Source: a virus
Taxonomy: Duplodnaviria > Caudoviricetes
Length of the DNA stretch: 64,000 nucleotides
Strand: one strand, 5' to 3'
IMG/VR virus record: IMGVR_UViG_3300038461_000042
Location: 1,503 to 65,502 of that record
The position numbers and the translations under genes were made by a program. Every line of letters starts with the position of its first letter. The stretch's first letter is position 1. Below, piece after piece: positions 1 to 15,383 of the stretch. The notes under the pieces are model-generated. The model had not been told where the DNA came from, did not search any database, and worked only from the letters and a program-made list of their open reading frames with translations.

Positions 1-213
1 CTATATATTAAATATAACGGTGGAAACTATATTGGAGCAGATAGTCGATTGGGCATGACCAGTCCTCGCACGTCTAGGGTATCGGTAACAACCATTTATG
101 ATTTGGCGGTCAATGACTATGTTGAATTGTGGGCATACATTGACGTAGCCTCGCCCTATGCAATCCATACAGCAGATTATTCCCCAAACTTTATGATGCA
201 AAGGATAGGATAG
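1..213 (+). CDS. 3' end of a tail-fibre/receptor-binding protein (C1q/TNF-like beta domain), truncated by the window edge
   Basis: Frame 1 is open from base 1 to TAG at 211-213 (…TTIYDLAVNDYVELWAY…FMMQRIG*). LAVNDYVELW is typical of C1q-like phage fibre tips. Not in the ORF track. Confidence 0.6.
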   Translation, partial: LYIKYNGGNYIGADSRLGMTSPRTSRVSVTTIYDLAVNDYVELWAYIDVASPYAIHTADYSPNFMMQRIG

Positions 214-215
214 CC

Positions 216-1175
216 ATGGCACAAACAAAAATGCCCACAAAGCAACTCCCGGTAGTGACAAGCATTGGAACTCCTGGCTTAGACACTAATATACCCTCTG
301 AAAAGGCCGTTAGAACCGCCATTTCAAACATTACTGGCAGTTCTTCTACCGGAACGTCTGGGGCGGGAACGGGATTTATCTATCCCGCCTGTGGGCGACT
401 TACTCTGACATCTGTGACTCCAGTTACTACCTCGGACGTAACCGGAGCGACAACCCTATATTACACACCCTATACCGGAGACCAGATAGCCCTCTACAAT
501 GGCGCAACTTGGGATTTAATTACCTTCCCGGAAATAAGTATAGCCATTCCCTCTGGAACATCGCAGATGTATGATGTATTTATCTATAATAATGGTGGTA
601 CGGCAACGCTTGAATTATTGGCATGGACAAGCGATACCGCTAGAGCAACTGCCCTTGTTTTACAAAATGGGATTTTATGCAAAACTGGAGCATTGACCAG
701 ACGCTACGTTGGTTCTGTAAGAACCACAACGGTAAGTGGTCAAACCGAGGATAGTATAGTAAATAGGTTCTTGTGGAATTACTATAATCGCGTCCCGCGC
801 CTTTTACAAAAAAGCGAAGCCACGAACCATACCTACGCAACGGTTGCATATAGATATTGGAACAACGATACTACGCAGCATGTTAACTACATTTGCGGTG
901 TCGTAGAGGAATTGAGTGTATATAATTTATACGCTTTAGTTAACTCCAGCAATACATCTTATCTTAGTAGGGTCACTGTTGGCGAGGATAAGTCCAATGG
1001 TTCTTCATATTGTCTACTTGCCACTTTTGTAACCCAACTTGGGCCTCAAGGTATGGCTCAAAAGGCATACCCGCTTCTTGGGTATCATTATCTGGCAATG
1101 TTGGAATATGTCAATAATGTCGGAAATACGGGCGTATTCAACCAGTATTTCTTTACTGGAGAAATCAAAGGATAG
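216..1175 (+). CDS. Tail fibre / minor tail protein
   Basis: 319 aa, Thr/Gly/Ser-rich, with CGRLTLTSVTPV and RRYVGSVRT…RFLWNYYNRVPR blocks seen in phage tail proteins; lies just before the lysis genes. Confidence 0.6.
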   Translation: MAQTKMPTKQLPVVTSIGTPGLDTNIPSEKAVRTAISNITGSSSTGTSGAGTGFIYPACGRLTLTSVTPVTTSDVTGATTLYYTPYTGDQIALYNGATWDLITFPEISIAIPSGTSQMYDVFIYNNGGTATLELLAWTSDTARATALVLQNGILCKTGALTRRYVGSVRTTTVSGQTEDSIVNRFLWNYYNRVPRLLQKSEATNHTYATVAYRYWNNDTTQHVNYICGVVEELSVYNLYALVNSSNTSYLSRVTVGEDKSNGSSYCLLATFVTQLGPQGMAQKAYPLLGYHYLAMLEYVNNVGNTGVFNQYFFTGEIKG

Positions 1176-1202
1176 GCAGTATAATCAAGCAAGGAGCATA
1201 AT

Positions 1203-2042
1203 ATGCCACTACCTCAGTTCAAATACGGCTTACTTCCGCCCAAGAGAGCACCTGCTCTACAATTCAAAAGCATTCTAAAAGCAGTCCCCGACCATCCACT
1301 GACCGAGGACTATCTAAAAGAGTTAACGGATTGGAGGATGCTTGGGAACGACCAACACTCCAATTGCGCAGCCGTGTTTTGGGCAAACATGCGCCGGATG
1401 ATGTCTGCTCTTTTGGGTGACAAAGAATATTATCCCACCCAAGAACAAGTCTACGCACTTTACAAGACACAGAATCCCGACTTCCCCGAGCAAGATGATG
1501 GAATGGATTTACAAACGATGTTTGAGTATCTTCATCACAGCGGGGGGCCGGATGGGGTCAAACTTCTGGCATTCGCGGAAGTGGATACCTCCAATCGGAA
1601 TGAGGTGGATGCTGCTTTAGCAATCTTTGGCGGTCTAGGTATGGGAATTCAGGTACAAGGAGCCAACCAGATTGATTTTGCCAATGGAGTTCCTTGGGAT
1701 TACCACCCCGGCCAATCCATCGAAGGCGGACACGCTGTTCTCGGAGGTGGATATTATAACCAACCACAGAATGACATCAGGTTTATCACATGGGCCAAAG
1801 AAACGGGCATGACCGATGCTTATTGGGATAACTTAGTAAATTGCCCACAGGGGCAATGTTGGATTTGCATCTGGCCGGAAAACATTGGAACGAAACAGTT
1901 TATCCAAGGCATTGACATGGATGCTTTGAGGACGGATTATGAGGTTTTGACAAACCGCCCTTTCCCCGCCGTCGCCCCAAGCGATAATCCCGGTTGTTCG
2001 GCTTGGCTGGCGATGTTACTCAAGAATGGAATGAAGGCATGA
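1203..2042 (+). CDS. Papain-like cysteine peptidase, putative lysis protein
   Basis: GNDQHSNC (Cys), GGHAVLGGGY (His) and ITW motifs in C1/CA-clan spacing; AGGAG RBS; located in the lysis module. Confidence 0.6.
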   Translation: MPLPQFKYGLLPPKRAPALQFKSILKAVPDHPLTEDYLKELTDWRMLGNDQHSNCAAVFWANMRRMMSALLGDKEYYPTQEQVYALYKTQNPDFPEQDDGMDLQTMFEYLHHSGGPDGVKLLAFAEVDTSNRNEVDAALAIFGGLGMGIQVQGANQIDFANGVPWDYHPGQSIEGGHAVLGGGYYNQPQNDIRFITWAKETGMTDAYWDNLVNCPQGQCWICIWPENIGTKQFIQGIDMDALRTDYEVLTNRPFPAVAPSDNPGCSAWLAMLLKNGMKA

Positions 2043-3058
2043 GAATCACCGACCCCGTTCTGGTTCCCGATGTTTCCTTTTATTGTGACCACATCCACGC
2101 CAAAGAGTTTGAGGATGGTGGATGCCAGTCTGTCATCGTGGGGCTTTATTCAATCACACAAAACGGGAAACAGGTTCTTAATCCAATCTGCCGGGCGCAA
2201 TGCCAGGAAGTTGCAAAGACTTCAATGGTATTACAGACTTACGCGTGGGATGATATTACCCTCGATCCAGTTGCTCAGGCAAATTGGGTGGCAGACACCA
2301 TTGAAATTGAAGGGCTGCCGATTAAGTGGGTTTGGGCAGACGACGAACAATGGTGGCTATCGTGGACGGCATACTATAATTGGCGCGGCAATCCGGCGAA
2401 ATATCCATTGAGTACCGTACCAAAAGGACTGCCACAGAATATCAGTATGCACATGCTGGCATTTACACAGACCCTACGCGCCCGCTTCCCCGCCTCCGGT
2501 GTGTACACAAACAATGGTTTCGTTGCATCCTGGGCGCAACCGATGAACTCGTGGCTTCCACTTTACAAGCAATGGGTTCCTGAATATGCGCGCGAGCCGA
2601 ATGTTATTACTTCAATGACCTGGGCGCAATTACAGGCGGGGTGGATGCCAAACTATGAGATTGCTCTTGCCGCTGGACAACTTCCTGGACAAGTTTGTGG
2701 ACATCAATTTACGGGGGACGTAATAAAACTTCCGGGCGCGTATGACCAATATTGCAATGAACAAGTACTAGACGTATCGGTCTTTTCAAAAGCGTTTGTA
2801 GATGGACTTCGCGGAGGCGTTCCAGTACCCCCTACACCCGCTCCCACGCCCCCACAGCCGCTTTATCCTGCCTATACTGCCATTTATCCCCTAAATGTGC
2901 GTTCCGGGGCTTCCCAGACCTCCCCATCGCTCGGGGTGATGCCCGCAGGAACAAAGGTTTTCATTGACACAGTTACCAATAATTACTCACATTTTCAACC
3001 GACACAAACATTCCAACAAGGCGGCTGGCTATGGAGTGCTTATCTTAAGAAGGTGTGA
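2039..3058 (+). CDS. Endolysin: GH25-like muramidase, Pro-rich linker, SH3b cell-wall-binding domain
   Basis: N-terminal PDVSFY, WADDE, GVYT and HQFT motifs of the GH25 fold; PPTPAPTPP linker; LNVRSG…GWLWSAYL SH3b domain. ATG at 2039 overlaps the upstream stop (ATGA). Confidence 0.75.
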   Translation: MRITDPVLVPDVSFYCDHIHAKEFEDGGCQSVIVGLYSITQNGKQVLNPICRAQCQEVAKTSMVLQTYAWDDITLDPVAQANWVADTIEIEGLPIKWVWADDEQWWLSWTAYYNWRGNPAKYPLSTVPKGLPQNISMHMLAFTQTLRARFPASGVYTNNGFVASWAQPMNSWLPLYKQWVPEYAREPNVITSMTWAQLQAGWMPNYEIALAAGQLPGQVCGHQFTGDVIKLPGAYDQYCNEQVLDVSVFSKAFVDGLRGGVPVPPTPAPTPPQPLYPAYTAIYPLNVRSGASQTSPSLGVMPAGTKVFIDTVTNNYSHFQPTQTFQQGGWLWSAYLKKV

Positions 3059-3059
3059 A

Positions 3060-3395
3060 ATGGACCCCACCCTACAAACTGTTCTTACAATCTTCACGCC
3101 ACTCTTGACCGTCATTGTCGCCGGGATAAGTTATGTGGTTGGACAGGCTATGTCGCGCTGGCAGGCGCGCGAGCAAGTCAAGACCATGCAGGCAAACAGT
3201 AAGCTGGCGGTTCAGGCGGTCGAGCAACTCGCCGCCGGACAACCCAATGAAGTCAAGGCAAAAATGGCATTGCAGATTGCCCAACAGTTGAACCAACAAG
3301 CCAAGATTGCCATACCGGATACGACCGTCGCGCCGATGAATGAGGCGCATGTATTGACCCTACCACCTGCCGCCGACGGCGAACCCAAAGGATAG
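3060..3395 (+). CDS. Holin-like protein (one N-terminal TM plus VQAVEQ helix)
   Basis: ATG at 3060 after AAGGTG; hydrophobic N-terminus and LL-H-holin-like AVQAVEQL; follows the endolysin. Confidence 0.6.
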   Translation: MDPTLQTVLTIFTPLLTVIVAGISYVVGQAMSRWQAREQVKTMQANSKLAVQAVEQLAAGQPNEVKAKMALQIAQQLNQQAKIAIPDTTVAPMNEAHVLTLPPAADGEPKG

Positions 3396-3398
3396 CCC

Positions 3399-3686
3399 AT
3401 GGACATTGATAACTTTTACCTGATAGTTGGTGCACTCGGTGCGCTGGTTGGTAGTGTTTATCTGGCCTACGCCGCGGTAAAGTTCCCGTGTTTATGGAGG
3501 TCGGCGCGCGGTGTCTATCTTTTGGCTGGATTGCTTGACCTCTACCTGGTTATAATTTACGGCCTGACGTTACTGGGAACATTGGGGATACCCGGATACG
3601 GCGCGTATGTGCGCCCGGTACTGCTACCCATTGTCATGTCCCCGGCAGCCATAGCCTATATCAACAGACGGATGAGGTCCAAATGA
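3399..3686 (+). CDS. Small three-TM membrane protein (lysis module)
   Basis: 95 aa with three hydrophobic segments and a basic C-terminus. Confidence 0.55.
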   Translation: MDIDNFYLIVGALGALVGSVYLAYAAVKFPCLWRSARGVYLLAGLLDLYLVIIYGLTLLGTLGIPGYGAYVRPVLLPIVMSPAAIAYINRRMRSK

Positions 3687-4036
3687 ATGTTGCGCTTCAG
3701 TGGCTTCCAACGATAATTGCCATAGGGGTTTTTGTTTTGTCTGCTCTCAAAACCCCCAAAGAAAATGCCAGCCTGAACGGTGGCACAGTCAAGAGTTACG
3801 CCGAGGCCGCAAAGATGGCAGGAGAAGATGCGCGCGCCGCCCGACAAGAAGCCAATGAAACAAAACAAAAAATGTTTGAAATGGAAAGACGATTAACCGT
3901 TGTTGAGCGCAAAAAGTTTAGATGCGTAATTGACTTTGAGATAGGCGACCCACCTACGGTCGGTGAAGTAAAAGTTGAGCCGATACTTCCTCCAGACATG
4001 AAAAAAACAGCGCCCATAAAGAAAGGCAGAAAATGA
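3683..4036 (+). CDS. Membrane-anchored coiled-coil protein (lysis module)
   Basis: N-terminal TM then coiled coil; ATGA overlap with the previous gene. Confidence 0.55.
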   Translation: MNVALQWLPTIIAIGVFVLSALKTPKENASLNGGTVKSYAEAAKMAGEDARAARQEANETKQKMFEMERRLTVVERKKFRCVIDFEIGDPPTVGEVKVEPILPPDMKKTAPIKKGRK

Positions 4037-4182
4037 AAACAATGATTCGCAATTTATTCTCAGACATATTTGGGGATGGGTATATAGAGGGACTTGTCAG
4101 AATTGTGTGTATAACAGGACTGTTGTGTCTGGAAGTTCTGTTTATTTATGGCATTATTACATTTATTGTCGCAATTCGATAG
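4033..4182 (+). CDS. Small membrane peptide (49 aa)
   Basis: ATGA overlap at 4033; MKTMIRNL…GIITFIVAIR*; below the ORF-track size cutoff. Confidence 0.45.
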   Translation: MKTMIRNLFSDIFGDGYIEGLVRIVCITGLLCLEVLFIYGIITFIVAIR

Positions 4183-4241
4183 TATAATAGAAGTTACTAC
4201 ACAACTCGGATTCTTGTTCACAGAAAGGAAAGGAATATCAA

Positions 4242-4544
4242 ATGAATCTTACGACTTTCTTAACCTGGCTTTTTGCAAGCGGAGGCTGTATTATCGCGGC
4301 TTCCTGGGTGCTTGGGCAATTCAAGGGATATGTCGCCCTCGCAGACAATGTGAAGAATTGGATTTTCTTCGCGGTGGCGGCGGTATTCGGGGGCGGAGGC
4401 TACGCCCTGATAACCTACCTGCCCGCGAGTGTTGTCAACGCCGTGGAACCATACTTTCTAATCGTGGCCGGTGTATTCGCTTATGTGTTCATCAACAAGG
4501 CATACACAAAGTTGGTCAATCTGGTGGAGGAGTTGAAGAAATAG
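4242..4544 (+). CDS. Holin-like three-TM protein
   Basis: GAAAGGAAGG RBS; three TM segments; charged C-terminus. Confidence 0.6.
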   Translation: MNLTTFLTWLFASGGCIIAASWVLGQFKGYVALADNVKNWIFFAVAAVFGGGGYALITYLPASVVNAVEPYFLIVAGVFAYVFINKAYTKLVNLVEELKK

Positions 4545-4623
4545 ACATATCTGGCAGGATAATCGAATAAATTACGCGAGGCCGTGGCGATAAGTCACGG
4601 TCTCTGCTTGAGTAGGAGGAAAC

Positions 4624-5664
4624 ATGCCCGCGACTGGACATTTCTGGAGTACCCGCGAAAAGACCGAATTACTTGCCGCCTTCAAAGAAGTACCACCCCA
4701 TATCACACAGGGCGAGTTTTGCAGACACTACGCCAAAAAATTGTGCATCACTCCCAACGCTGTCAGAATACAACTCCGAACACTTATGTTTGAAATAGGC
4801 GGCATTATTAGGGAAAGTCCCTACCCGAGATATGACGAGCCATTGGTGATGGAGGGCGACGCGATAGTTTTTCCAGATATTGAAATGCCATTCCATCATG
4901 CAGAATTTATCAACCAGTGTTTGAAATTGGCAAAGGCTTGGGGCATAAGACAATGTATCATTGCTGGAGACTTGCTTCATTTCGATAGCCTTTCGGGATG
5001 GGAGCCGAATTGGAAAAATACAGATGAGGGCGAGATTACGCCAAAGACAGAAGAGGCGTTGGTGGAATTTGCCAAAACTTTGGGTAGCAGACAACAAGCC
5101 GCGTTATTCGGGATTATCGGGGAAATGGGGAAAAAAGATGAACAAGACGGAATGTCCACTGAATTAAAAATAGCCAGAGAGGAAATAAAGAAATTTGAGA
5201 AATGCTTTGATAAGATTGATATGGCCTTGGGGAATCATGAAGGGCGATTGCTCCGGGCATTACAAACCACCCTGAATCCCGAAGAAATAACTACGCTTCT
5301 AAAAACCGGGGAACATTGGCGGATTGCCCCGTTCTATTATTCCTACTTGATAAGCAATGGGGAAAAGTGGTGTATTGACCATCCCAAGAGCGCGGCGGCT
5401 TCAACGGCGGCGGTTCTCGCAAGCAAGTACGAATGCCATGTCCTGATGGCCCACAGCCACCACTTTGGAATAACCACCGACATATCGGGGAAATATTATG
5501 CGGCGGAAATTGGCTGTTGTGTGGACGAGGATAGATTACCTTATGCTGCCCAAAGGCACACGCGGTCGGCGGCGCACTCGCTCGGGGCGGCAATAATTCG
5601 GGGCGGGTATCCATGGGTGCTAACAAAATTCACGGATTGGGACAGTCTCTTGAAAATATCGTAG
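4624..5664 (+). CDS. Calcineurin-like metallophosphoesterase with N-terminal HTH
   Basis: Motifs DIE-PFH, GDLLHFD, GNHE, DH and AHSH; AGGAGG RBS. Confidence 0.85.
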   Translation: MPATGHFWSTREKTELLAAFKEVPPHITQGEFCRHYAKKLCITPNAVRIQLRTLMFEIGGIIRESPYPRYDEPLVMEGDAIVFPDIEMPFHHAEFINQCLKLAKAWGIRQCIIAGDLLHFDSLSGWEPNWKNTDEGEITPKTEEALVEFAKTLGSRQQAALFGIIGEMGKKDEQDGMSTELKIAREEIKKFEKCFDKIDMALGNHEGRLLRALQTTLNPEEITTLLKTGEHWRIAPFYYSYLISNGEKWCIDHPKSAAASTAAVLASKYECHVLMAHSHHFGITTDISGKYYAAEIGCCVDEDRLPYAAQRHTRSAAHSLGAAIIRGGYPWVLTKFTDWDSLLKIS

Positions 5665-5929
5665 AGAGAAACTTGTATCTAATCTATGAGCTATAAGTAG
5701 GTTTGTGGCTCACTTTTGATGAAATATGAGCTATAGGCCGTAAAAATTCAGACCTTTAGCAGATAGTATAGAATTAACTGTTAATCTTCACGGGTACAGT
5801 GTATTCTATACACAGATAATTACTCAATAAGAGATTATCGCAGTACGAAATACACAGAATTGCTTAAAAGTACAATTCATTCATCCCAAATTGTCTTTTT
5901 GATGCAAAATGTGCAATTCAGATAACATG

Positions 5930-5958
5930 AGAACCAGGCGGAGGAGTCGCCTGGTTCT
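5930..5958 (-). terminator. GC-rich hairpin ending the leftward ncRNA/operon (possibly bidirectional)
   Basis: AGAACCAGGCG-gaggagt-CGCCTGGTTCT, an 11-bp perfect stem between convergent units; the U-tract is weak. Confidence 0.55.
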
Positions 5959-5960
5959 GC

Positions 5961-6299
5961 ATTTGCCCTCACACTCAGACGCGATATGGGCGAGGGGGGC
6001 GACCGATGGGGACTGGCTGGTTACTCGTGCAATGTTTCGCCAGCATTTCGTGGGACGATTGGCACGTACGCTTTGGCCCGATCTGGCCGCAGTCCCTTGG
6101 GTGGAGTGTTCTGGGTGTACCCAGCCTCAGACACCCACTGGACGGCATCGGCGCAGACGCTTGGCGACTGGCCTTATCCGTCCAAACGCACAACGTGGTA
6201 GGTGGCTCGCCTACGAACACCCTGCGCCGGATGACGCGTCATCCCGGAACGGTGCACTCTCGCAAGAACTGCCCTCGGGCGTTTCCCACGGTGGCAAAT
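5961..6299 (-). ncRNA. Candidate ~340-nt highly structured non-coding RNA with pseudoknots; family not recognised
   Basis: GC-rich island with no credible ORF and about ten complementary stems, two pairs of them crossing. G-U pairs and a GNRA loop work only on the minus strand. Upstream TGnTAAAAT, downstream hairpin. Confidence 0.6.
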
Positions 6300-6301
6300 C
6301 T

Positions 6302-6310
6302 ATTTTACCA
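6302..6310 (-). promoter_or_regulatory. Extended -10 promoter (TGGTAAAAT) for the ncRNA candidate
   Basis: The minus strand reads TG-G-TAAAAT; predicted start near 6295. Confidence 0.45.
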
Positions 6311-6335
6311 CGAATTACCGAGGCGTATCGTACTT

Positions 6336-6524
6336 TCACGCCTTATTGGTGAGGGCTTCTGTCATGGCTTCTGTCAATATTTCCGGTTCGGCGGGACGTT
6401 GCATGATAAGATACTCATCATTCATTGCGGCGATTGTCCAGCCATCCTCTGCCCACGGCTTTAACCAGGCTTCTAGTTCTTCGGGTGACATGAAATAATC
6501 AAGATTCTTTACGCGGTATTCCAT
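6336..6524 (-). CDS. Hypothetical acidic protein
   Basis: 62 aa; AGGTG RBS; last gene of the leftward operon. Confidence 0.55.
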   Translation of the reverse strand: MEYRVKNLDYFMSPEELEAWLKPWAEDGWTIAAMNDEYLIMQRPAEPEILTEAMTEALTNKA

Positions 6525-6525
6525 T

Positions 6526-6765
6526 TCACACCTGTCTTTCTACGCGCTTCATAATGCGCTCGAATTGCTTCTTTGGATACAGTTTCTTACACAGGCATCT
6601 TGAGAAGCCGATAACCGGGTCGAAAGTATCTTCGATGCTGCACGTGGATTTCGTACGCGTCCCGTCATTCCACAGGACAACGGTGGTTTGGCCGCGGGTT
6701 ATGACCTTGCGGGGATAAGGAATTAATCCATCCACTATTACAGTGACTTCTAAATCTGTATCCAT
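6526..6765 (-). CDS. Conserved phage hypothetical protein
   Basis: TVVLWNDGTRT…C…DTFDPVIG…CLCKK pattern common in phages; GAAAGGATAAAA RBS. Confidence 0.65.
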   Translation of the reverse strand: MDTDLEVTVIVDGLIPYPRKVITRGQTTVVLWNDGTRTKSTCSIEDTFDPVIGFSRCLCKKLYPKKQFERIMKRVERQV

Positions 6766-6781
6766 ATTTTTATCCTTTCTG

Positions 6782-7207
6782 CTATAACAGCATTTCCGTT
6801 ACCGGAACATAAAAATGGTTGGAGATAAACCTCACCCTCCCGCTCTTTCTTACCACACTGGCAACCGAGTACCATCCGTGCCTGCTTAATCCCAATTCAT
6901 GCTGGACTTCAACCGGAGTAACCTTCCCGCGCTGTTGGATATATTCAATCGCTTTCAATGCCAGTTCTTTCTTGGTCTCAAATTCAGACTTCTTTCCATG
7001 CCCGGCACGGACGCGATAGGATTCGGCCAGTATCTTTAATCCAGCCTTCTCACACTCTAAGGCAGTTTGCAAGAGGATGGTTTCGTCCGAGGTTGAATTA
7101 GCCTCATCGAGAAGAGGCCTCAGGCGCACAATGGCATCAATGCGCGGGGAGGTCTTACGGTCAAAGCGCGGTAAACCTTCATAGGGTACAAGTACATCAA
7201 TGGTCAT
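6782..7207 (-). CDS. Hypothetical protein with C-terminal winged-HTH
   Basis: Likely start at MTIDV; ALKAIEYIQQRGKVTPVEVQHELGLS looks like a wHTH. Confidence 0.5.
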   Translation of the reverse strand: MTIDVLVPYEGLPRFDRKTSPRIDAIVRLRPLLDEANSTSDETILLQTALECEKAGLKILAESYRVRAGHGKKSEFETKKELALKAIEYIQQRGKVTPVEVQHELGLSRHGWYSVASVVRKSGRVRFISNHFYVPVTEMLL

Positions 7208-7445
7208 AGAACCTCCTCCATCCAGCGCGCAAGCCTGCACAGCCAATTCGGGCAGACTTCATAATCGGCATTATGGGATTTCCTGCCATGCCAATTGAAA
7301 ATGGGAGCGATAATGCGATACCCCCACCAGCGCGGGTCGTGGTATTCTTTCATTCTTCCTCCATTCTTCTCTCTTCCGCATATCGCGCTCAGCACACAGG
7401 CAACCACCAGCGCAACCACTAGGACGGGCCAATCCCAGGTGGGGG

Positions 7446-7829
7446 TCATAATTGGACTTTCTTCGGATAACCGCGTGGTGGGAAACGGTCAATATCCCAC
7501 GCCCGGTCGGGTTGCTCTAATTCATCTTCTAAGTGGAATGATGGTTCATCGTCAAGCGGCGGCGGAGGCCATGACCGATGCACGTTCTTTTCTTGCTTGG
7601 CAATAAGGGCGTTTACCACTTGTGACGGAGTAAATCCCATCCGACAAGCACCATCGAAGGCCAATAAAATAATGTCTATCCATTCAGTGACATCCTTGGG
7701 GTTTTGTCGCACTTCCTCAATTTCTTTTTCGATATGCTTCAAAACTCCAATATGACGCTCAGAAATACCAAAGGTCTTATATGACCATTCCATTTTTGCC
7801 TGCAACCAATCGACCAATTCTTTCATCAT
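7446..7829 (-). CDS. DUF550-family dATP/dGTP pyrophosphohydrolase
   Basis: HIEKEIEEV…EWIDIILLAFDG…AKQEKNVHRSWP MazG-like signature. Confidence 0.8.
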   Translation of the reverse strand: MMKELVDWLQAKMEWSYKTFGISERHIGVLKHIEKEIEEVRQNPKDVTEWIDIILLAFDGACRMGFTPSQVVNALIAKQEKNVHRSWPPPPLDDEPSFHLEDELEQPDRAWDIDRFPPRGYPKKVQL

Positions 7830-8044
7830 TTCGCCTCCAACTTTGCTAAATCAGCATCTATTACTTGCCAGAAATCCGACCTCAATCCATAAGGCCAAGT
7901 TTTAGCTTGTTCTTGTTCATGCGCCACGATAGGCCACAAGGCAAATGTCTGATAAACCGCCAATGTATGACATTTCGGACACAGGCGATAATTCTGTGTT
8001 GCCCCGTCACACTTTAGGCACCACCAAAGGCCAATCATGTTCAT
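7826..8044 (-). CDS. Small Zn-ribbon protein
   Basis: CLKC…CPKC; GGAGG RBS before MNMIG. Confidence 0.5.
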   Translation of the reverse strand: MNMIGLWWCLKCDGATQNYRLCPKCHTLAVYQTFALWPIVAHEQEQAKTWPYGLRSDFWQVIDADLAKLEAK

Positions 8045-8382
8045 TTCGCCTCCAGGAACTTGCGGGCAGCAATAATTTCTTTCATGCCTTCGACATCCCA
8101 CTGTCCGTTGTCACCGCTTTCTTCCAATTCGATAATCCATTTCATCAATTTATTAATGACCTTTTCCGCCTCTGCCAGCTTGGACTTGAGGGCGACAAGT
8201 TCGGAACTGGCGTTGTTTAGAGAATTGTCAATCTTTTCTAAAACTCCATCCACTATCAGTTCATCACCCATCCACATATTTGTTTTATCGGTTCGACAAA
8301 TACTATAATCTCCCTCCTCAGACAGTAAATGTTTTAATTCTTTTATATTCTCAATCAATTCTTCAATCGCTTTTGTATCCAT
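8041..8382 (-). CDS. Hypothetical coiled-coil protein
   Basis: Start at MDTK after GAGGTG; ATGA-type coupling with the next gene. Confidence 0.55.
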   Translation of the reverse strand: MDTKAIEELIENIKELKHLLSEEGDYSICRTDKTNMWMGDELIVDGVLEKIDNSLNNASSELVALKSKLAEAEKVINKLMKWIIELEESGDNGQWDVEGMKEIIAARKFLEAK

Positions 8383-8392
8383 TCTCACCTCT

Positions 8393-8530
8393 CTAACGCA
8401 CAGCATATTTGACTATCTTCCCGCAATCCAAACAGCGGTAGACCTCGAATATCCCATCGTCTTTGATAAATGAATATTCGGTATCGCAATGACAGATTTC
8501 ACAAAATAGCCAGATAATCAGTTTACTCAT
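8393..8530 (-). CDS. Small Zn-ribbon protein (45 aa)
   Basis: MSKLIIWLFCEICHC…RCLDCGK…*; GGAG RBS; below the track cutoff. Confidence 0.5.
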   Translation of the reverse strand: MSKLIIWLFCEICHCDTEYSFIKDDGIFEVYRCLDCGKIVKYAVR

Positions 8531-8540
8531 TTTTTATCTC

Positions 8541-9860
8541 CTAACGAGTATAGTCTGGTAAAACCTCGCGCGTGGTTCCATCTGAGAAGCGCATGGTTTC
8601 CTGATTGAAGTAAGATATAACCGTTCCGGTTGGGCCGTTTCTGTGTTTGGCTATAATTAATTCTCTTGGGTCTATCTCGGATTTTTGATAGATAAAAATT
8701 ACCTGGTCCGCATCTTGCTCAATATTGCCACTCTCTCGCAGGTCTGACAAAACCGGCTTCTTCTCTCCACGCCCCTCCACCGCGCGATTGAGTTGCGCTG
8801 CCGCCAGAATGGGGATGTCCAGTTCCTTCGCAAGTGCCTTTAATCCTCTAGTGACTTCGCCAATGTCCAAGTCTCTCCGATCGTTTTTTTGGTCTGCATT
8901 TGCCAGTTGAATGTAATCCAAAGCAATAAAGTCGGCCTTGTGTTTTCGGGATTCGGAACGTATCTGACCTATTCGAATCGCCGGAAGGTCGCAAATAACA
9001 ATTGGCAGTCCTGATAGCCCATCGGCGGCCTGTTGGTATTTTTCCTGTTCATCCTCGCGTATATTCCCATTCATAATCCGAAAGGCAGAGATACCAGATA
9101 GTTGTGAGATAAATCTTTGGGTAATGGACACTCCGCTCATTTCAACAGAGAATAAAAGCCCGCGTTTTCCATTATCTGCCGCATTCAAGAGTATCGTACA
9201 AAGTAAGGCGGTTTTCCCAAGCCCCGGCCTAGCCGCGACTACAATCAATTCCTGCTTCTGAATGGCGATAATCTTATCGAGATCGTTCAATCCGGTCTTT
9301 AATGCCCGTTCTCCTTTCGAGGCTTTGTCGGTTGCGTCCATGGCTTTGGCAACCGCCTCGTCCATCCCCATGGTATGAGTAAGTATTTTCCCTGAGTGGA
9401 GAACCATTTTGCTAAATTCGTTTTCCACGTCTGCGACAATGGCAGAGGCGGTGCGTCCATTGGTTGCCCAAGTTGCTATCTTATTTGCCACTTCCCGCAG
9501 AGCGCGCTTCTGTGCATAATCTGATACTGTGACCGCGTAACTCTCCCCGCTTCCCTTGACAGTGTAAACGTCCCTGATACAACTCAACGCAGCCCTTCCG
9601 GTAAACTGTTTGTTGTCTGGAATTTGAAAGTCTTGTAGTCTCCCCATTCTTTCCAATTCATCGGCAAGGACAATCATGTCCAACTTCATACCAGAAGTAA
9701 TAATATTTTGCATAGCCTCCCAAGCCCACCCAAAACAAGCCCACGAAAAATCGCACGGTCTGACAATATCGGCCAGAGCAGAATATTCTTCTGGATGTCT
9801 TAGCGCGTGGGCAAGAATGGCGGTTTCCGATTCTCGATTGGCGATAATGGGTTCATTCAT
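8541..9860 (-). CDS. dnaB: Replicative DNA helicase
   Basis: Walker A ARPGLGKT, FSVEMS, DYIQL, AQLNR, DLRESGNIEQDAD and KHRNGPTG. Confidence 0.95.
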   Translation of the reverse strand: MNEPIIANRESETAILAHALRHPEEYSALADIVRPCDFSWACFGWAWEAMQNIITSGMKLDMIVLADELERMGRLQDFQIPDNKQFTGRAALSCIRDVYTVKGSGESYAVTVSDYAQKRALREVANKIATWATNGRTASAIVADVENEFSKMVLHSGKILTHTMGMDEAVAKAMDATDKASKGERALKTGLNDLDKIIAIQKQELIVVAARPGLGKTALLCTILLNAADNGKRGLLFSVEMSGVSITQRFISQLSGISAFRIMNGNIREDEQEKYQQAADGLSGLPIVICDLPAIRIGQIRSESRKHKADFIALDYIQLANADQKNDRRDLDIGEVTRGLKALAKELDIPILAAAQLNRAVEGRGEKKPVLSDLRESGNIEQDADQVIFIYQKSEIDPRELIIAKHRNGPTGTVISYFNQETMRFSDGTTREVLPDYTR

Positions 9861-10053
9861 TAAGCAACACCTCCAAGCAATCTGCCTCGTCTTGTACCCC
9901 CTCCAATAAATGTGCTAGACCGTTTTCGTAATCTTCTTCCATTTCAAAGATGGCGTTCACTTGCTTACAGAGATAGGACGGGACAGGTATATCACAATTT
10001 ACATAACTCCCAAACTTACGAATCGTATCGGAAACTATTGTTTGCAGGCTCAT
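9853..10053 (-). CDS. Hypothetical protein between initiator and helicase
   Basis: 66 aa, overlapping both neighbours. Confidence 0.5.
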   Translation of the reverse strand: MSLQTIVSDTIRKFGSYVNCDIPVPSYLCKQVNAIFEMEEDYENGLAHLLEGVQDEADCLEVLLNE

Positions 10054-10895
10054 AGCATTCCCTTTTCTTCCAGTTCTTGTACCGTAGGATAATGCCTTTC
10101 TTCCGGTTCTTGCTCAAAAGCCAGCGGCCAATCTTCCCATACATTTGACGGTTTCCTGCCATACCATTGAATCCGCTGTGGCCTGTCCTTTTGTCGATTA
10201 ACCCACTTTACGAAGCCCTCAACCGTTCCTGTGCCTTTCTGGACGGCATCTACAATCAGTCGCGCAACCCTGTCCCATTCCCTGTTTTCCCCATATTTCG
10301 GCCAATTCGGATTGAGGTGGGAAAGACCTTCGATGACCGCCTGGGCAGAGCTGTTTTCGGGGAAAAGGTCGTCTGGCGAAACCGCGCGCCCCATAATTAT
10401 CGCAGCCTCGATTCCCCTAATATTCTTGATTGAGGATTGTCGAGTCTTGCCTTTTTCCTTTGAAGTGATACCCTCGTTAATTGGGGCGTTAACTGGGGCG
10501 TTAACGTCAACCCCAGAGGTTGATGGGGTGTCAACTACTGGTGTTGATGGGGGGGTATCATCACAGTTTACGGGGTCTAGTTCATCAGGCAGCTCTTGGT
10601 AATCAAACCTGATACGAATAAGATTAGATCGACGCGCACCAGATTCTTTATCATACCTGGGATGGATTTCCAAGTATCCTTTTGCTTGTAGGATTTGAAT
10701 GTCGCGACTTACTGCTTGTTTACTTTTTCCTAAAATGTCCCCAATTGTTTGTAGTTTCGGAAAACACCATCCATTCTTATCTCCAAAAATTCCGAGCGCA
10801 GCAAGAGTCCTATATGCGCTATCTGACAACTCTTTGTCTGCTACTGCCTTCGCTGGCGCAATTGAAAATCTTTGATTTCCCATAATGTCACTCAT
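10050..10895 (-). CDS. Replication initiator (N-terminal HTH_36-like)
   Basis: GWCFPKLQTIGDILGKSKQAVSRDIQIL wHTH, Pro/Thr linker with DNA repeats, upstream of dnaB. Confidence 0.75.
   Translation of the reverse strand: MSDIMGNQRFSIAPAKAVADKELSDSAYRTLAALGIFGDKNGWCFPKLQTIGDILGKSKQAVSRDIQILQAKGYLEIHPRYDKESGARRSNLIRIRFDYQELPDELDPVNCDDTPPSTPVVDTPSTSGVDVNAPVNAPINEGITSKEKGKTRQSSIKNIRGIEAAIIMGRAVSPDDLFPENSSAQAVIEGLSHLNPNWPKYGENREWDRVARLIVDAVQKGTGTVEGFVKWVNRQKDRPQRIQWYGRKPSNVWEDWPLAFEQEPEERHYPTVQELEEKGML
10475..10562. repeat. Iteron-like repeats inside the initiator gene (candidate origin)
   Basis: TGGGGCGTTAAC twice and GTCAAC-N-GTTGATGGGG twice in the linker region. Confidence 0.45.
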
Positions 10896-10904
10896 AAATC
10901 AAAT

Positions 10905-11003
10905 CTCCTCTTGGGTGAACCTGTGGCCTTGTGGGGGAACAACCAGTTAAGGGGTTCAGACCACAAGCCCACCCAAGAGGAGGCTTGAACCTGATTGTTC
11001 CCA
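10905..11003 (-). promoter_or_regulatory. Structured 5' leader sequestering the initiator RBS
   Basis: CTCCTCTTGGGTG/CACCCAAGAGGAG stem containing the GAGGAG RBS; upstream GGGAACAATCAGGTTCA is complementary to the loop. Confidence 0.55.
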
Positions 11004-11019
11004 TTCCACGTAATTAATT

Positions 11020-11214
11020 TTACTCTTTAGCGCCGTCGGTGTCAAGCACGTATCTGCAATACTCTATTTTCGCCCATTGCGCGGTCAATTTTTCATTCCA
11101 TCCGCAATAATCCTGAATGGGACGAAAATGACCACAATCAATAAAATATCTTCCCACCAGCTTGCATGGGCAATTCTGGCAATTGTAACTGCCGTCGCCA
11201 TCGTTATTCCACAC
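11020..11214 (-). CDS. Cys-rich hypothetical protein
   Basis: 64 aa with CQNCPC…C…C. Confidence 0.4.
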   Translation of the reverse strand: MWNNDGDGSYNCQNCPCKLVGRYFIDCGHFRPIQDYCGWNEKLTAQWAKIEYCRYVLDTDGAKE

Positions 11215-11418
11215 AAATAACCAAGAAAAAATTTATCAAACATCATTTCCTCTCAATCTTTATCCACTTTATATCTTGGTGGCTTGACAGAGTTTTGAAC
11301 ACAACTCCTGCCGCGACGATATATATTACCAATGGGCATAAACTATTCAGCCATTGCAGAACATGCCCCAAGGCGAAGTAGATTGTATTATACAGGGTGA
11401 CGTAGAAAAAGAAGTCGG

Positions 11419-11913
11419 TCATGGCAATGACCCTATAATTGAGTCGTCCAATCCATCGTCAAAGGGGTGTGGTTCTTTGGTTGGCTCAGGGTGGGAGGCT
11501 AGAAAGGTATCTATTTCATTCTCAAAATCACCATTTATATTCCACGCCCCTCCCCCCTCATAGTGTGCCATCTCGTTTTCTCGTTGGGCTTTGGCAATTA
11601 TGCGCCGCGCCTCCGCCAGTTCAGCCTTCGCCGCGGCAAGATCGGCGCGAATATCTTTGGTTTCAACGTGTTCGTTCTCATAATTCTCAAGCCACTTTAT
11701 ACCGGCACCCTGTTCTGGAATTTCATTCCACTCGCCTTCGTGATATTGAGAATAATTGTCTATTACTTCCCATGCTTTTGCCAATTCTGCCTCTTTAGTA
11801 GCGAGATTGGCGCGAAGCTGGGCAAGTTCTCCGCGGGCAAGTCTGCCATTGTTGCTTGCCTGTTTATTTCGGTCATTTTCTAAATTGGCTACAGCTACAT
11901 CAAGTGCGCTCAT
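11419..11913 (-). CDS. Hypothetical coiled-coil protein
   Basis: 164 aa; AGGAG RBS; internally duplicated LRANLATKEAELA / IRADLAAAKAELA. Confidence 0.6.
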   Translation of the reverse strand: MSALDVAVANLENDRNKQASNNGRLARGELAQLRANLATKEAELAKAWEVIDNYSQYHEGEWNEIPEQGAGIKWLENYENEHVETKDIRADLAAAKAELAEARRIIAKAQRENEMAHYEGGGAWNINGDFENEIDTFLASHPEPTKEPHPFDDGLDDSIIGSLP

Positions 11914-12644
11914 TCTCGCTCCTTTGGGAATATCATTTCTACTGCCATGTCCGCCAATTTATCAAAATTAATATTGGCATCGGCGGCATAGGCGGCATGG
12001 GCGGCGACATCGGCGGCATAGGCGGCATGGGCGGCGGCATAGGCGGCATGGGCGGCGGCATCGGCGGCATAGGCGGCATAGGCGGCGGCATCGGCGGCAT
12101 AGGCGGCATAGGCGGCGGCATAGGCGGCATAGGCGGCGGCATAGGCGGCGGCATGGGCGGCGGCATCGGCGGCATAGGCGGCATAGGCGGCATCGGCGGC
12201 ATGGGCGGAAGGATTGCTTAAATACGCTTTGGCGGCTTCGATTGCTTTTCTAGGCACATTGTTTTGTGGATACTTTTTCTCATAAATTCCCAAAACCGCC
12301 TCAGCACACAAAATTGCAAATGCAACTTGGACAAGATTAGCCTTATTGGAATTGACCCAACCCGGAACGTCTAATTGTTTCGTAATTGACAATGAGAAAC
12401 AACCGACCTTCCCCCAATCTGACACGCATGGTTTTCCATTGCATTCCCACACGATAGGATTGTCAATATTGGCATGGCAAGAATTGAGCAGGAACGCGAG
12501 ATTGAGATTGGTGTAAGCATGAAATACACCTTTGGAACACAATTCCGGTTTTTTACATGCTTTCTTTTTATGGGTTTTACCCACGCTCCAATGAGTATTG
12601 TTTTGTGTATTTCCTTCTTGGTCGGTGAGTTTATATAGAATCAT
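11910..12644 (-). CDS. DUF7666-like/Imm5-like phage protein with Ala-rich tandem repeat
   Basis: YKLTD…LCSKGVFHAY N-terminal domain, CAEAVL…PRKAIEAAKAYL helix, then (A/Y/D/H) repeat tract. Confidence 0.6.
   Translation of the reverse strand: MILYKLTDQEGNTQNNTHWSVGKTHKKKACKKPELCSKGVFHAYTNLNLAFLLNSCHANIDNPIVWECNGKPCVSDWGKVGCFSLSITKQLDVPGWVNSNKANLVQVAFAILCAEAVLGIYEKKYPQNNVPRKAIEAAKAYLSNPSAHAADAAYAAYAADAAAHAAAYAAAYAAYAAAYAAYAADAAAYAAYAADAAAHAAYAAAHAAYAADVAAHAAYAADANINFDKLADMAVEMIFPKERE
11976..12208. repeat. Low-complexity tandem repeat (GGC)2-3-AT(A/C/G) units
   Basis: About 230 bp of ggcggcata / ggcggcatc / ggcggcatg units. Confidence 0.95.
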
Positions 12645-12846
12645 TGTCTCCTTCTTTCTTCGGGAATATCCAGGTGGTCAATGTTCCGTTAGATTGCCGA
12701 AACAGATAAACGGTATCTGCCCCGAATTTCGCCGCCCATTCCTTGGCTTCCTGTTCATCCCTACAATTCCAAGTAGAGAGCATATTGCCATGGGGAAGGG
12801 CGGATAGGCGGTCGAGAGTTATGATGGAAATATCAGAGGGGGTCAT
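12631..12846 (-). CDS. Hypothetical protein
   Basis: Probable start at MTPSD after GGGG; overlaps the next gene. Confidence 0.45.
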   Translation of the reverse strand: MTPSDISIITLDRLSALPHGNMLSTWNCRDEQEAKEWAAKFGADTVYLFRQSNGTLTTWIFPKKEGDNDSI

Positions 12847-13005
12847 TTCATCCCCACCCTTCTGATATACAATGGGATAAACCCAAACAGAAACCATCCC
12901 TCGCAACTCCACTGTTTATCATCGCCACCGAACCGCTTCATATTTTTGAACCACTGTTTATAAACTATCATGGTATCTCCTCTCAGATATTCCTCTGCCC
13001 GATCA

Positions 13006-13404
13006 TTAGGGTTTCATGTGGATTAAGGTGTGGTGGTAGCGACATAACCAAATTATCTCTTTTGGTTTTGAATAATCGGGGTGGTGCCTTTGTCCAATAT
13101 TATCACATCCCTCTATTGAACATTTTTGTGGGACGGGATATATTCTTCTTGCCATAGCCTGGGCATTGGTTTTGTTTTTGTTTTTTTCTGCATATCTTTT
13201 GTCTCGGTCTTTTTTAGTACGATCTTCTCCTTTTTTTCGGTGTTGGCGAGATGGATAATTTCTCCGAATAAATCTTGTTTCATTTGTTTTTCTTTTTATG
13301 TTTCTGCATATTCTGCACTCATATTCTAATCCGTCTTTATATCTACTCCTTTTCGTGAAGTTGGATTCATCCAAATATTTTTTGCAAACAGAACATTTTT
13401 TCAT
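13006..13404 (-). CDS. HNH-like endonuclease with N-terminal Zn finger
   Basis: KKCSVCKK…CRIC, then CSIEGC…HHPDYSKP…WLCRYHH; start at MKKC after AGGA. Confidence 0.75.
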   Translation of the reverse strand: MKKCSVCKKYLDESNFTKRSRYKDGLEYECRICRNIKRKTNETRFIRRNYPSRQHRKKGEDRTKKDRDKRYAEKNKNKTNAQAMARRIYPVPQKCSIEGCDNIGQRHHPDYSKPKEIIWLCRYHHTLIHMKP

Positions 13405-13422
13405 GGTCATTCCTAGGCAAAA

Positions 13423-13531
13423 TCCCGCATCCAACCCATTAACTCTGCCAAGAGATACCGACGCGAAGTCGGATGGATTGGATGCGGGAAATTGTAAAGG
13501 AAAATTCGCGCTCATTGGTATCTCTTGGCAA
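13423..13531 (-). promoter_or_regulatory. Structured leader upstream of the HNH gene
   Basis: CCCGCATCCAA…TTGGATGCGGG stem; its loop carries GGTATCTCTTGGCA, complementary to upstream TGCCAAGAGATACC (14 nt). Confidence 0.55.
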
Positions 13532-13570
13532 TCTCTAGTATATCACAAAACACAGAGCAGAGGGATGGGA

Positions 13571-13930
13571 TTATTTGCCACCTATAGACGACAAAACATT
13601 GGTGATTGCGTAATAGTATGGATTGATAAGTGCCATAACAGCCATTACTAACAACCCAAACGCAACCAGTGTAAAAACGGCAGATCCACAGAAACATAGC
13701 GGTATTCCAAGTTCCCAATGTTTGTCAAATTTGCCATTCTTTTCATCCCTGTCGTATTGTGGCTTATTTGCCATTGCCAACCTGTATAGTAAAAATGCTA
13801 CGGCAATCAACATTAGCGCCCACAGAATATCGGCGACGGCGTAGACATAGACCTGCTTTACCAGAACGCCCCAAACGGTCGGGCTGGCAGATTTCACAAA
13901 GTCAATCAATTGTTGCAACGCCTCATTCAT
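13571..13930 (-). CDS. Two-TM membrane protein
   Basis: Start at MNEAL after AAAAGGA; two TM helices; NPYYYAI motif. Confidence 0.6.
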   Translation of the reverse strand: MNEALQQLIDFVKSASPTVWGVLVKQVYVYAVADILWALMLIAVAFLLYRLAMANKPQYDRDEKNGKFDKHWELGIPLCFCGSAVFTLVAFGLLVMAVMALINPYYYAITNVLSSIGGK

Positions 13931-13979
13931 GGTTATATCCTTTTCTGCGGGGGACGTTGTGCGCGTCCCCCGCGATAGA

Positions 13980-15140
13980 CTAGATGCTCTTTTTGTATTC
14001 GAGATACCAAGCATTTGCTTTTTCGGCAGAGGTTGTCGCCGATGGACTTTCCTTGGTTGCCTTCAGGGGACGTGCATTGCGATATTCTTTACCCCACGCC
14101 TTGATGAGTTCAGGGGTGGCGTTGGATGGAAGATTGGATAGTCCCAACATTCCACGCGCTCCAAAGTCGTTGAGGGCAAGACCTGCACCTATTAGGGCGT
14201 TTATTTGTTCTGGCGCCCAGACAATCTTTCCCGGTTCTTGTTTGGGTGCATCTCCAAACCCAAGATCGTGTAGGCTTTGTCCCTCGCTGCGCGGTTCTTG
14301 TGTTTCTGTCGGTACGTCCTGGGCGACCACATCGGTGATTTCATCGTCGTTTGCCCATTCGCGTTCGCCCTCATCGTCTTGCAGGGCTGAGCGCAGGGCG
14401 GCGGTTGCACTATCCTTTCCAGACATATCGCCCCATTTGATGAGTTCCCGGAAGCAGGTCTTGAGTTCCATGGCTTGCCGCATTTTGGGATTGTTCCATG
14501 GGCTTTTGGGATTATGGTATCCGGGCGAATACATTTCGGCGTGTTCGGAAATTTCCGCCATGCTCATGTAAACAGTTTTCTTGAAGCCCTTATTTGTCTC
14601 AAAGTATCCGAGATAGCCGATAATCTTCTTGTCGCCCGGGCCGTCCGTGACATCTTGATAGCCCTGCCCTTGCAGTTTCGAGAGTTTGTCGTTCTCAACC
14701 AAGAGGCCATTTTCTAGCATCAAGTAGTGGATGCCGGTCGTGCTGTGCTGCATGACGCGCTGTCCTTCGCGGACAGGGGTTACGTTGATGGCGTAGTATT
14801 TGCCGGTTCGTACCATCAGGGTATAGAGGCCGCGATAGTGAGGCCAGAACTCCGCCTTGCCGCTGATGGGGACAAGATAAGCCTGCTTCAATGCGGGATC
14901 GCAGGACAGTTCCAGAGAAGCCGCGCGCAATGCTGAGCGCAGGATGCTTTGCGGTTCGCATCTCATCAGGTCGCCGTTAGCAGTACAGGCAATCAGAACG
15001 CTTTGCACATAAGCATTGGCCTCGTTTCCAAGAACGGCCCTGAACTTCTGAATGATGTCTGGGCGGTGGAAATACTCGGCTAGGCTGTCGCCGGGCTGTG
15101 GCGCTTTCTGAATTGCTTTTGTTGGATCGGGTGCTGTCAT
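13980..15140 (-). CDS. recT: RecT/Redbeta-family single-strand annealing protein
   Basis: CEPQSIL…AASLEL, QAYLVP, YRGL…L, EHAEMYS…SPW…MELKT motifs. Confidence 0.85.
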   Translation of the reverse strand: MTAPDPTKAIQKAPQPGDSLAEYFHRPDIIQKFRAVLGNEANAYVQSVLIACTANGDLMRCEPQSILRSALRAASLELSCDPALKQAYLVPISGKAEFWPHYRGLYTLMVRTGKYYAINVTPVREGQRVMQHSTTGIHYLMLENGLLVENDKLSKLQGQGYQDVTDGPGDKKIIGYLGYFETNKGFKKTVYMSMAEISEHAEMYSPGYHNPKSPWNNPKMRQAMELKTCFRELIKWGDMSGKDSATAALRSALQDDEGEREWANDDEITDVVAQDVPTETQEPRSEGQSLHDLGFGDAPKQEPGKIVWAPEQINALIGAGLALNDFGARGMLGLSNLPSNATPELIKAWGKEYRNARPLKATKESPSATTSAEKANAWYLEYKKSI

Positions 15141-15380: not shown

Positions 15381-15383
15381 AAT

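Follow-up and report, generated by a model that had tools for sequence, protein, structure and literature searches.

Between the converging ends of two operons in a phage genome lies a GC-rich island that is a real feature of the DNA and probably specifies a transcribed, orphan non-coding RNA. The window analyzed here is a stretch of 64,000 nucleotides, bases 1503–65502 of the 65.5-kb IMG/VR phage record IMGVR_UViG_3300038461_000042 (rated 94% complete and classed as 'linear'), and the island, the body of the proposed RNA, occupies positions 5960–6300 of it; coordinates refer to the window unless a relative is named. We favor the reading, on which our own confidence is evenly balanced, that the island is a horizontally acquired, lineage-specific, moron-like non-coding unit producing a stable minus-strand RNA of at least 295 nt. 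The observations that carry it are presence in RNA libraries, an anomalous GC content, no coding signal or protein relative in the tested frames, absence from the closest relative found (locus L015), and a terminator-like hairpin.

Coverage of the island in RNA libraries

We searched sequencing runs with an 801-nt query (window 5600–6400), which several DNA runs from peat and permafrost, possible sources of this DNA, contain in full. Six metatranscriptome runs (X12, X15 and X17–X20, from six coded studies; four labeled 'bioreactor' from 2025 and two labeled 'peat' from 2024–25) carry 0.33–0.44 of the query, and five of the six are near-equal in share (0.33–0.38). Contig positions were then read on a longer stretch, 5200–6900 (1701 nt), for four runs, two of RNA (X12, X15) and two of DNA (X11, X13). 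X15 yielded one contig at 6003–6283 (283 nt, depth 9.96, 0 differences) and nothing else on the 1701 nt. X12 yielded a contig at 5989–6271 (283 nt, depth 6.8, 0 differences) and only one other, at 5450–5713 (depth 5.5), which ends exactly at the terminator-like hairpin of the late operon (5687–5712, plus strand, conserved in L015). The two island contigs together define an RNA-covered interval of 5989–6283. From the DNA runs X13 and X11 came short pieces dispersed along the entire stretch; two DNA contigs (5820–6129 and 5902–6052) bridge the left border of the island into the phage flank with no loose ends, so the island RNA need not come from another genome. Uncovered parts of the stretch prove nothing alone, but a pattern of island only, or of island plus the 3′ end of a terminated mRNA, is unlike DNA carry-over.

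The original prediction, of a standalone phage RNA with its own promoter and terminator, implied a discrete transcript, and the X12 and X15 contigs answer this in part: they cover just the island, and they give neither strand nor ends. A circular RNA, considered because the two contigs are equal at 283 nt, was rejected on their collinear mapping, their 295-nt joint span and the absence of joints, a weak argument since contigs drop rare forms.

These data also bear on the possibility that nothing specific is present, the island being a chance GC-rich spacer and its RNA-library contigs coming from contaminating phage DNA. The depths are low (5–10), DNA can sit in RNA libraries, and the stems, promoter motif and minimum free energy (MFE) described below all lie near chance. 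Carry-over, however, should cover the 1.7 kb evenly, whereas X15 shows the island only and X12 the island together with a late-mRNA 3′ end running to its terminator. The agreement of five of the six RNA runs at 0.33–0.38 likewise speaks against it, and drift is not expected to yield a 340-nt stretch that lacks coding signal and exceeds the genome by 16 GC points. We consider a chance spacer quite improbable.

Base composition and coding potential

The GC content of the island is 0.59–0.64 (about 62%), compared with 0.465 for the whole window and 0.31–0.35 in the adjoining 260 nt. Taken over 340 nt it reaches 62.6%, the second highest value among 340-nt windows in the 64 kb. The highest peak (11906–12245) was considered as a relative of the island and rejected, being a coding tandem repeat inside the open reading frame (ORF) at 11910–12644. 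That repeat (11980–12215, minus strand) is long and GC-rich; the ORF encodes a 244-aa protein with a weak phrog_38757 match, and the repeat reads, by eye and not from a tool translation, as alanine-rich with Tyr, Asp and His. In genomes of lower GC content, long intergenic regions that are rich in GC are enriched for structured RNAs (Stav et al. 2019, PMC6429828).

GC by phase is flat across the island (0.667/0.614/0.584), with no three-base periodicity, and GC at the second codon position is 0.50–0.67 in six candidate island frames, compared with 0.38–0.47 in nine real phage genes. Pfam gave no match at E ≤ 0.1 for the 147-, 152- and 81-aa island ORFs. The 147-aa frame retrieved only itself among 5.8 billion proteins, the 152-aa frame had 0 matches among 1.84 billion representatives (phmmer), and a protein search returned no candidate relative for the 81-aa minus-strand frame. 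The island is non-coding by every test that could be run.

We regard as very improbable the alternative that the island encodes one or two small minus-strand proteins, perhaps a frameshift-split gene from a GC-rich donor forming a protein moron. Two minus-strand ORFs, of 42 aa (6339–6211) and 81 aa (6220–5975), do tile the island, and the second stops 17 nt before the terminator; the GTG start of the first overlaps the upstream TGA stop (GTGA), a coupling arrangement that looks like that of small genes, and orphan small proteins are common at this phage position. Their second-position GC of 0.605 and 0.622, however, compares with the 0.38–0.47 of real genes, third-position GC is not raised, and Cys, Pro, Arg and Ser abound in the translations. 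No Shine–Dalgarno sequence precedes the 81-aa ORF, and this ORF, the one of the two that was searched, has neither a Pfam match nor a relative; several other frames on both strands are equally open, as expected at 62% GC.

Relatives and lineage specificity

Relatives were collected through neighboring genes: the metallophosphoesterase gene on the left of the island has two in IMG/VR and ten in metagenome contigs, and the DnaB-like helicase gene has ten in IMG/VR. No similarity to the island was found in the 23 fetched loci by blastn, nhmmer or translated search. When 1841 stop-to-stop ORFs from these loci were compared with 5600–6400 by tblastn, the best island match had E = 2.3e-4 over 18 residues; three matches at E < 1e-3 stand against about 1.8 expected from 1841 queries and are therefore noise. 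By blastn the island has no match in phages, E. coli genomes or plasmids, and a megablast search of window 1–20000 against phages also found none. A back-translated pattern scan with the open frame of the island gave none in IMG/VR or in one genome each of 185,579 species, two exact island 22-mers are absent from IMG/VR, and neither the window nor the record holds a second copy. Searches with neighboring proteins were also negative: those of 154, 79 and 62 aa have no IMG/VR relatives, the 154-aa one found only itself among 5.8 billion proteins, and the metallophosphoesterase found nothing in single genomes of 185,579 species. Our literature search, of limited terms and collection, found no paper describing the island RNA.

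The closest relative found is L015, whose DnaB is 86% identical in amino acids and 78% in nucleotides. Beyond DnaB, the sole DNA it shares is 51 nt (window 5720–5670), the late-operon terminator. Its early operon ends at 2649 and is followed by an AT-rich junction of about 200 nt and converging genes, with no GC-rich non-coding stretch. Because L015 has the same junction without the island, comparison of the two indicates that the island was inserted in this lineage, in a region whose small genes differ from relative to relative.

L015 has a GC-rich stretch (58–66%) of its own at about 1600–2050, within the region 1447–2311. It lies inside early-operon ORFs and was judged coding by eye: a 138-aa ORF comes first, then a 148-aa ORF beginning at a GTG that overlaps the TGA stop before it. 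Comparison of this stretch with the island detected no similarity. In seven of the twelve metallophosphoesterase loci (L002, L005–L008, L011 and L012) the contig ends in the gene or at most about 180 nt after it, which suggests that assemblies break at a variable junction after the metallophosphoesterase. These contigs include ones of 30.8 kb and 39.7 kb; loci L003 and L014 are the same contig, and the end of L002 resembles what we take to be sequencing-adapter sequence.

Strand, promoter-like motif, terminators and ends

An intrinsic-terminator-like hairpin of 11 bp, with a 7-nt loop and the tail CATGTTATCT, lies at 5930–5958 on the minus strand (consensus scan; pair probability 0.96–1.0). 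Its U-tract is poor, and the RNA contigs fall short of it. At the opposite end, an extended −10-like motif, TGGTAAAAT (6302–6310, minus strand), with no good −35, would place a start near 6295; the RNA-covered interval begins 12–24 nt downstream of that predicted start. Taken alone, the motif is weak, since it is about as frequent as chance predicts; what argues for it is its position just outside the covered interval. In the MFE structure an 8-bp minus-strand hairpin with one G-U pair (6291–6311) overlaps the motif, 25 nt past the stop of the last early gene. The promoter and terminator that the original prediction had assigned to the RNA thus fare differently: a terminator-like minus-strand hairpin is indeed present at 5958–5930, whereas the promoter is a motif match only, at chance frequency.

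We favor the minus strand for the island RNA, on the position of the −10-like motif, the minus-strand terminator-like hairpin and the lack of any plus-strand promoter-like site near 5989; the sole plus-strand site lies at 5747–5774, in uncovered AT-rich DNA. MFE z values are also slightly better on the minus than on the plus strand. The AT-rich half of the junction has repeats of its own. A 16-nt inverted repeat (88% complementary, 5766–5811 region) holds the only plus-strand promoter-like site, and an exact 11-nt direct repeat, TATGAGCTATA, occurs twice 40 nt apart (5685–5735), its first copy being an arm of the late-terminator hairpin.

The same arrangement fits a passive 3′ tail: foreign GC-rich DNA, acquired by illegitimate recombination at the variable end of the early operon, would be transcribed only as the 3′ untranslated region (UTR) of that operon and, owing to its high GC and many hairpins, leave a decay-resistant fragment that is functionless, or that only stabilizes or insulates converging transcription. 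The island lies directly downstream of the last early gene and co-directional with it, before the only terminator-like hairpin of the operon. The distal early region is mosaic between relatives, the island is a singleton with no relatives in any collection searched, and its fold is no better than chance. Abundant 3′UTR-derived phage RNAs without a start site of their own, of about 210 and 120 nt, are documented in Pseudomonas phage PAK_P3 (PMC10914365). On the other side, depth in X15 is about 10 on the island and none on the upstream gene (6336–6524), so the precursor would have to be much less stable than the fragment; the −10-like motif is rightly placed for an independent start, and L015 manages without such a tail. 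We consider a passive tail, the main rival, rather unlikely and carry forward the reading of a moron-like RNA unit. Should the island be only a decay-resistant 3′ tail it would be an ordinary feature, and the present data cannot separate the tail from the RNA-unit reading.

Predicted secondary structure

The stems listed in the original prediction all exist: eight of eight two-sided stems are perfect Watson–Crick complements, and three named hairpins (6111–24, 6229–44 and 6271–80) are present. We compared the inverted repeats in 5960–6300 with those in 300 dinucleotide shuffles. Repeats of at least 7 bp number 6, against 3.45 ± 1.78 in shuffles (38 of 300 reach 6); those of 6 bp number 19, against 12.6 ± 3.6 (17 of 300); and there is one of 8 bp, against 0.89. 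Perfect 7-bp stems drawn by hand in a sequence of 62% GC are expected by chance and should not count as evidence of structure. The pseudoknotted architecture proposed earlier rests on 7–8-bp complements of this kind, which shuffled sequence gives at a similar rate, and it is unproven.

Without its two flanking hairpins, the core gave MFE z values between −0.86 and −2.42 for the minus strand and between +0.08 and −0.54 for the plus strand. For 5925–6312, which includes the flanking hairpins, the values were −163 kcal/mol (z −2.84, minus) and −160.9 kcal/mol (z −1.76, plus), these better z values including the terminator hairpin. In the minus-strand ensemble only local elements and the terminator hairpin are likely (P 0.7–1.0). 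Stems S1 (5961–67/6293–99), S3 (6016–20/6040–44), S4 (6049–55/6284–90) and S8 (6149–56/6222–29) have P ≤ 0.03, and S2 (6009–15/6090–96) has P 0.2; the long-range stems that would create the two pseudoknots are at P ≤ 0.03 in a model that is nested and cannot score pseudoknots.

The sole local structure that the folding model places clearly beyond chance is an irregular 17-bp hairpin at 6139–6184 (minus strand; closing stem 6139–45/6178–84, P 0.88–0.99): the segment 6137–6186 has a folding energy of −27.3 kcal/mol (z −5.08), a stability that 0 of 200 shuffles reach. It is silent on strand because all of its pairs but one are Watson–Crick. The truly unusual parts of the region are this one hairpin (6137–6186) and the GC island itself, neither of which the original prediction stressed. 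The other local elements predicted on the minus strand are a perfect 16-nt palindrome, GGATGACGCGTCATCC, forming a hairpin at 6229–6244 (pair probability 0.73–0.93); a 5-bp hairpin at 6198–6214 (stem 6198–6202/6210–14, pair probability 0.85–0.86); and a hairpin at 6098–6137 with stem 6098–6103/6132–37 and inner stem 6111–24 (pair probability about 0.7).

An internal direct repeat of about 35 nt pairs 6173–6140 with 6088–6053 on the minus strand (score 24, against 18.3 ± 2.5; 4 of 100 shuffles reach it). A repeated hairpin module built on these two segments was rejected as marginal, the second copy folding differently (z −0.83). The original prediction further argued from G-U pairs that parts of the fold form only on the minus strand; no covariation confirms this, and no homologue was found in any collection searched. 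The sole variant seen, C6090A in DNA run X11 (depth 3.5), falls at the last pair of a doubtful stem.

Known RNA families and element classes

We scanned the whole window with Rfam 15, in which 0 of 4227 families reached the gathering score, and 5955–6305 alone, on which none matched at E ≤ 10. The families covered include tmRNA, RNase P, SRP, 6S, group I and II introns, HEARO, GOLLD, ROOL, small ribozymes and riboswitches. On the longer stretch 5700–6500 five sub-threshold matches appeared at E ≤ 10 (11–21 bits, against cut-offs of 45–120), four of them on or beyond the terminator hairpin or the AT-rich flank and one at 6278–6319. ARAGORN found no tRNA or tmRNA in the island and no tmRNA in the window. 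These searches bear out the earlier statements that the RNA is unrecognized and that no tmRNA, RNase P, SRP or group II hallmarks are seen. Elsewhere in the window, ARAGORN found a tRNA-Met (CAT) at 16370–16440 (minus strand), adjoining the rtcB region.

Several other element classes were considered and rejected. A retron msr-msd or other reverse transcriptase-associated non-coding RNA was set aside because the 65.5-kb record has no RVT_1 match, and an attP site with a host tRNA or tmRNA piece because there is no Phage_integrase or Resolvase match, no ARAGORN result in the island and no host match in one genome each of 185,579 species. A REP/BIME-like palindrome cluster does not fit, the hairpins differing in sequence, with one marginal direct repeat and no other copy. 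The island has no match of at least 14 nt in the rest of the window, a result that speaks against antisense control of some other gene of the phage.

A broader alternative acting at the level of DNA, such as a cluster of protein-binding sites, an origin, a site for partition or packaging, or one for attachment that carries host sequence, is scarcely probable in our estimate. In its favor are the perfect 16-bp palindrome at 6229–6244 and other short palindromes nearby, the adjoining AT-rich stretch with direct and inverted repeats, and the position, which matches that of att in lambda-like phages. About one 16-bp palindrome is, however, expected by chance in 64 kb (arithmetic); the record has no tyrosine or serine recombinase match and no tRNA or tmRNA piece, and the pattern scan of one genome each of 185,579 species gave no match. 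The terminase genes are about 20 kb off and the replication initiator is at 10050–10895, and RNA-library contigs confined to the island would be left unexplained.

Genomic setting

The island sits in a 671-nt gap between the converging ends of the late (plus-strand) and early (minus-strand) operons, the longest gap between ORFs in the window by a crude greedy gene call. Late plus-strand genes occupy the window from about 25.5 kb onward to its end, and further plus-strand ORFs occupy 216–5664; we infer that the latter continue the late operon across the ends of the record. The last plus-strand gene encodes the metallophosphoesterase (4624–5664; phrog_221, E 2e-19). The early minus-strand operon encodes a RecT-like protein, the replication initiator (10050–10895) and the DnaB-like helicase, followed by a dATP/dGTP pyrophosphohydrolase (Pfam), several small ORFs and, last, a 62-aa ORF (6336–6524, minus strand). 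This final ORF lies directly upstream of the island, and its codon-position GC is gene-like (0.54/0.38/0.51). The phage has a standard large terminase region, about 20 kb from the island.

Proposed mechanism and its weighing

What we infer for the strand, promoter, exact ends, any tertiary fold and function of the island RNA is the following. The island would be an 'RNA moron' inserted at the junction of the converging early and late operons. Its RNA would be a minus-strand transcript, co-directional with the early operon, starting near 6295 from its own host-type extended −10 promoter or, alternatively, arising by read-through and processing of the early transcript. The 5958–5930 hairpin would bound it downstream, giving an RNA whose length would reach about 365 nt if it extends from 6295 as far as the terminator. 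The GC-rich RNA, of at least 295 nt, would outlast the neighboring mRNAs, and its central part (6098–6244) is predicted to fold into a row of stable hairpins. As a working guess, these 6098–6244 hairpins might act in trans by binding proteins, either as a scaffold or as a decoy, a role that we prefer to that of an antisense RNA or ribozyme. The ribozyme, scaffold or decoy roles put forward in the original prediction are speculative.

A number of points weigh against this account. The stem counts lie near chance level, and the modeled stability of the core (z 0 to −2.4) shows no clear excess over chance. With no homologue found there is no covariation, and evolution lends the fold no support. 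The −10 motif is no less common than chance predicts (9 TGNTAWAAT sites in the window, 6.6 expected) and has no −35. The island contigs end at 5989 and 6003, 30–45 nt short of the terminator stem, unlike the late-mRNA contig of X12, which does reach its own terminator. Contigs carry no strand, end or abundance data, and DNA may contaminate RNA libraries. Contig positions come from two of the six RNA runs; in the remaining four (X17–X20) the share of the query fits the length of the island, a fit that says nothing of position, and possibly only two campaigns lie behind the six RNA runs. The two tiled minus-strand ORFs, with the second stopping close to the terminator and the first overlapping the upstream stop codon, belong on this side as well, and a single lineage-specific insert might have no function.

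A bolder version of the RNA reading takes the island as the first one seen of a novel class of large (300–365 nt) structured phage RNAs with a defined tertiary fold, a ribozyme or ribonucleoprotein core carried as an RNA-only moron and abundant in infection. Its ends would perhaps be handled by the phage RtcB ligase (16819–17970), and the element of loci L009 and L010, described below, would make the junction a recurring 'RNA cargo slot'. This we hold to be clearly unlikely.

If the preferred reading is true, an RNA-only accessory unit of about 300 nt would offer a lead into phage RNA biology and would mean that the cargo of a moron can be an RNA. So far few non-coding RNAs of phages are known, and most of these are shorter than 200 nt.

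A GC-rich element at the same junction in two relatives

In L009 and L010 the metallophosphoesterase is 47% identical to that of the window phage, and after the gene come an AT-rich stretch containing TGATATAAT (L009 4150–4158), about 300 nt of GC-rich sequence, a strong, terminator-like hairpin (4428–4449) and then converging genes. This junction element (L009 4048–4525, L010 1745–2180) thus occupies the same converging junction, with its strong terminal hairpin on the plus strand. ORFs of 50–86 aa overlap it, none judged a convincing gene, by eye only. Folding gave it an MFE z of −2.64 for the plus and −1.75 for the minus strand, and no Rfam family matched it at E ≤ 1. L009 and L010 share the first approximately 180 nt with one difference, which turns a G-C into a G-U pair in a predicted plus-strand hairpin, and then diverge in blocks. 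In sequence the element does not resemble the island (the local alignment scores 20, shuffles 19.0 ± 2.2), and its orientation relative to the flanking genes is the opposite of that of the island. Since the two are unrelated in sequence and oppositely oriented, the idea that the junction may serve as a slot for RNA cargo is only a hint, drawn by analogy.

Comparison with known systems

The pRNA of phi29 is a structured scaffold RNA of about 174 nt, transcribed from an early promoter that borders the early region in phi29-like, protein-primed phages, and it is represented in Rfam. The island resembles it as a candidate structured phage RNA at the edge of the early region that would serve as a scaffold rather than a regulator, and differs in that its phage has a standard large terminase region and in having no Rfam match. 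The island is about half the size of the GOLLD and ROOL RNAs or less. The likeness to these large, ornate RNAs of bacteria and phages (PMC12286853) is that of a large RNA, of unassigned function, carried on phage DNA; in contrast, the island misses their Rfam models, does not lie beside tRNA genes, has no covariation-supported fold and gives no sign of a multimer.

In the virulent Pseudomonas phage PAK_P3, abundant 3′UTR-derived RNAs are reported, ncRNA1 of about 210 nt and ncRNA2 of about 120 nt (PMC10914365). Compared by description, the island itself being without a match in the phage collection, the likeness is a stable non-coding RNA that exceeds mRNA in abundance and lies 3′ of, and co-directional with, the last gene of its unit. 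For the island this position, downstream of the last gene and before the terminator, applies if its RNA is on the minus strand. The island RNA would differ in being longer (at least 295 nt), strongly GC-shifted and possibly provided with its own promoter.

Phage morons are accessory units that are autonomous, each having a promoter and a terminator of its own (Juhala et al. 2000, cited after PMC10914365). They are defined around a protein gene, whereas the cargo of the island would be an RNA and its promoter is putative: TGGTAAAAT lacks a −35 and occurs at chance frequency, with the contig edge at 6283 compatible with a start near 6295. Several features make up the moron-like fit. The island is found in one phage and is absent from the same junction in L015, the sole relative this close; its base composition deviates (62.6% against 46.5% GC); and a promoter-like motif and a terminator-like hairpin stand at its ends, the latter at 5958–5930 on the minus strand with a weak U-tract and with RNA contigs falling short of it. 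On these points the island fits the description of a moron, except in having no protein gene as cargo.

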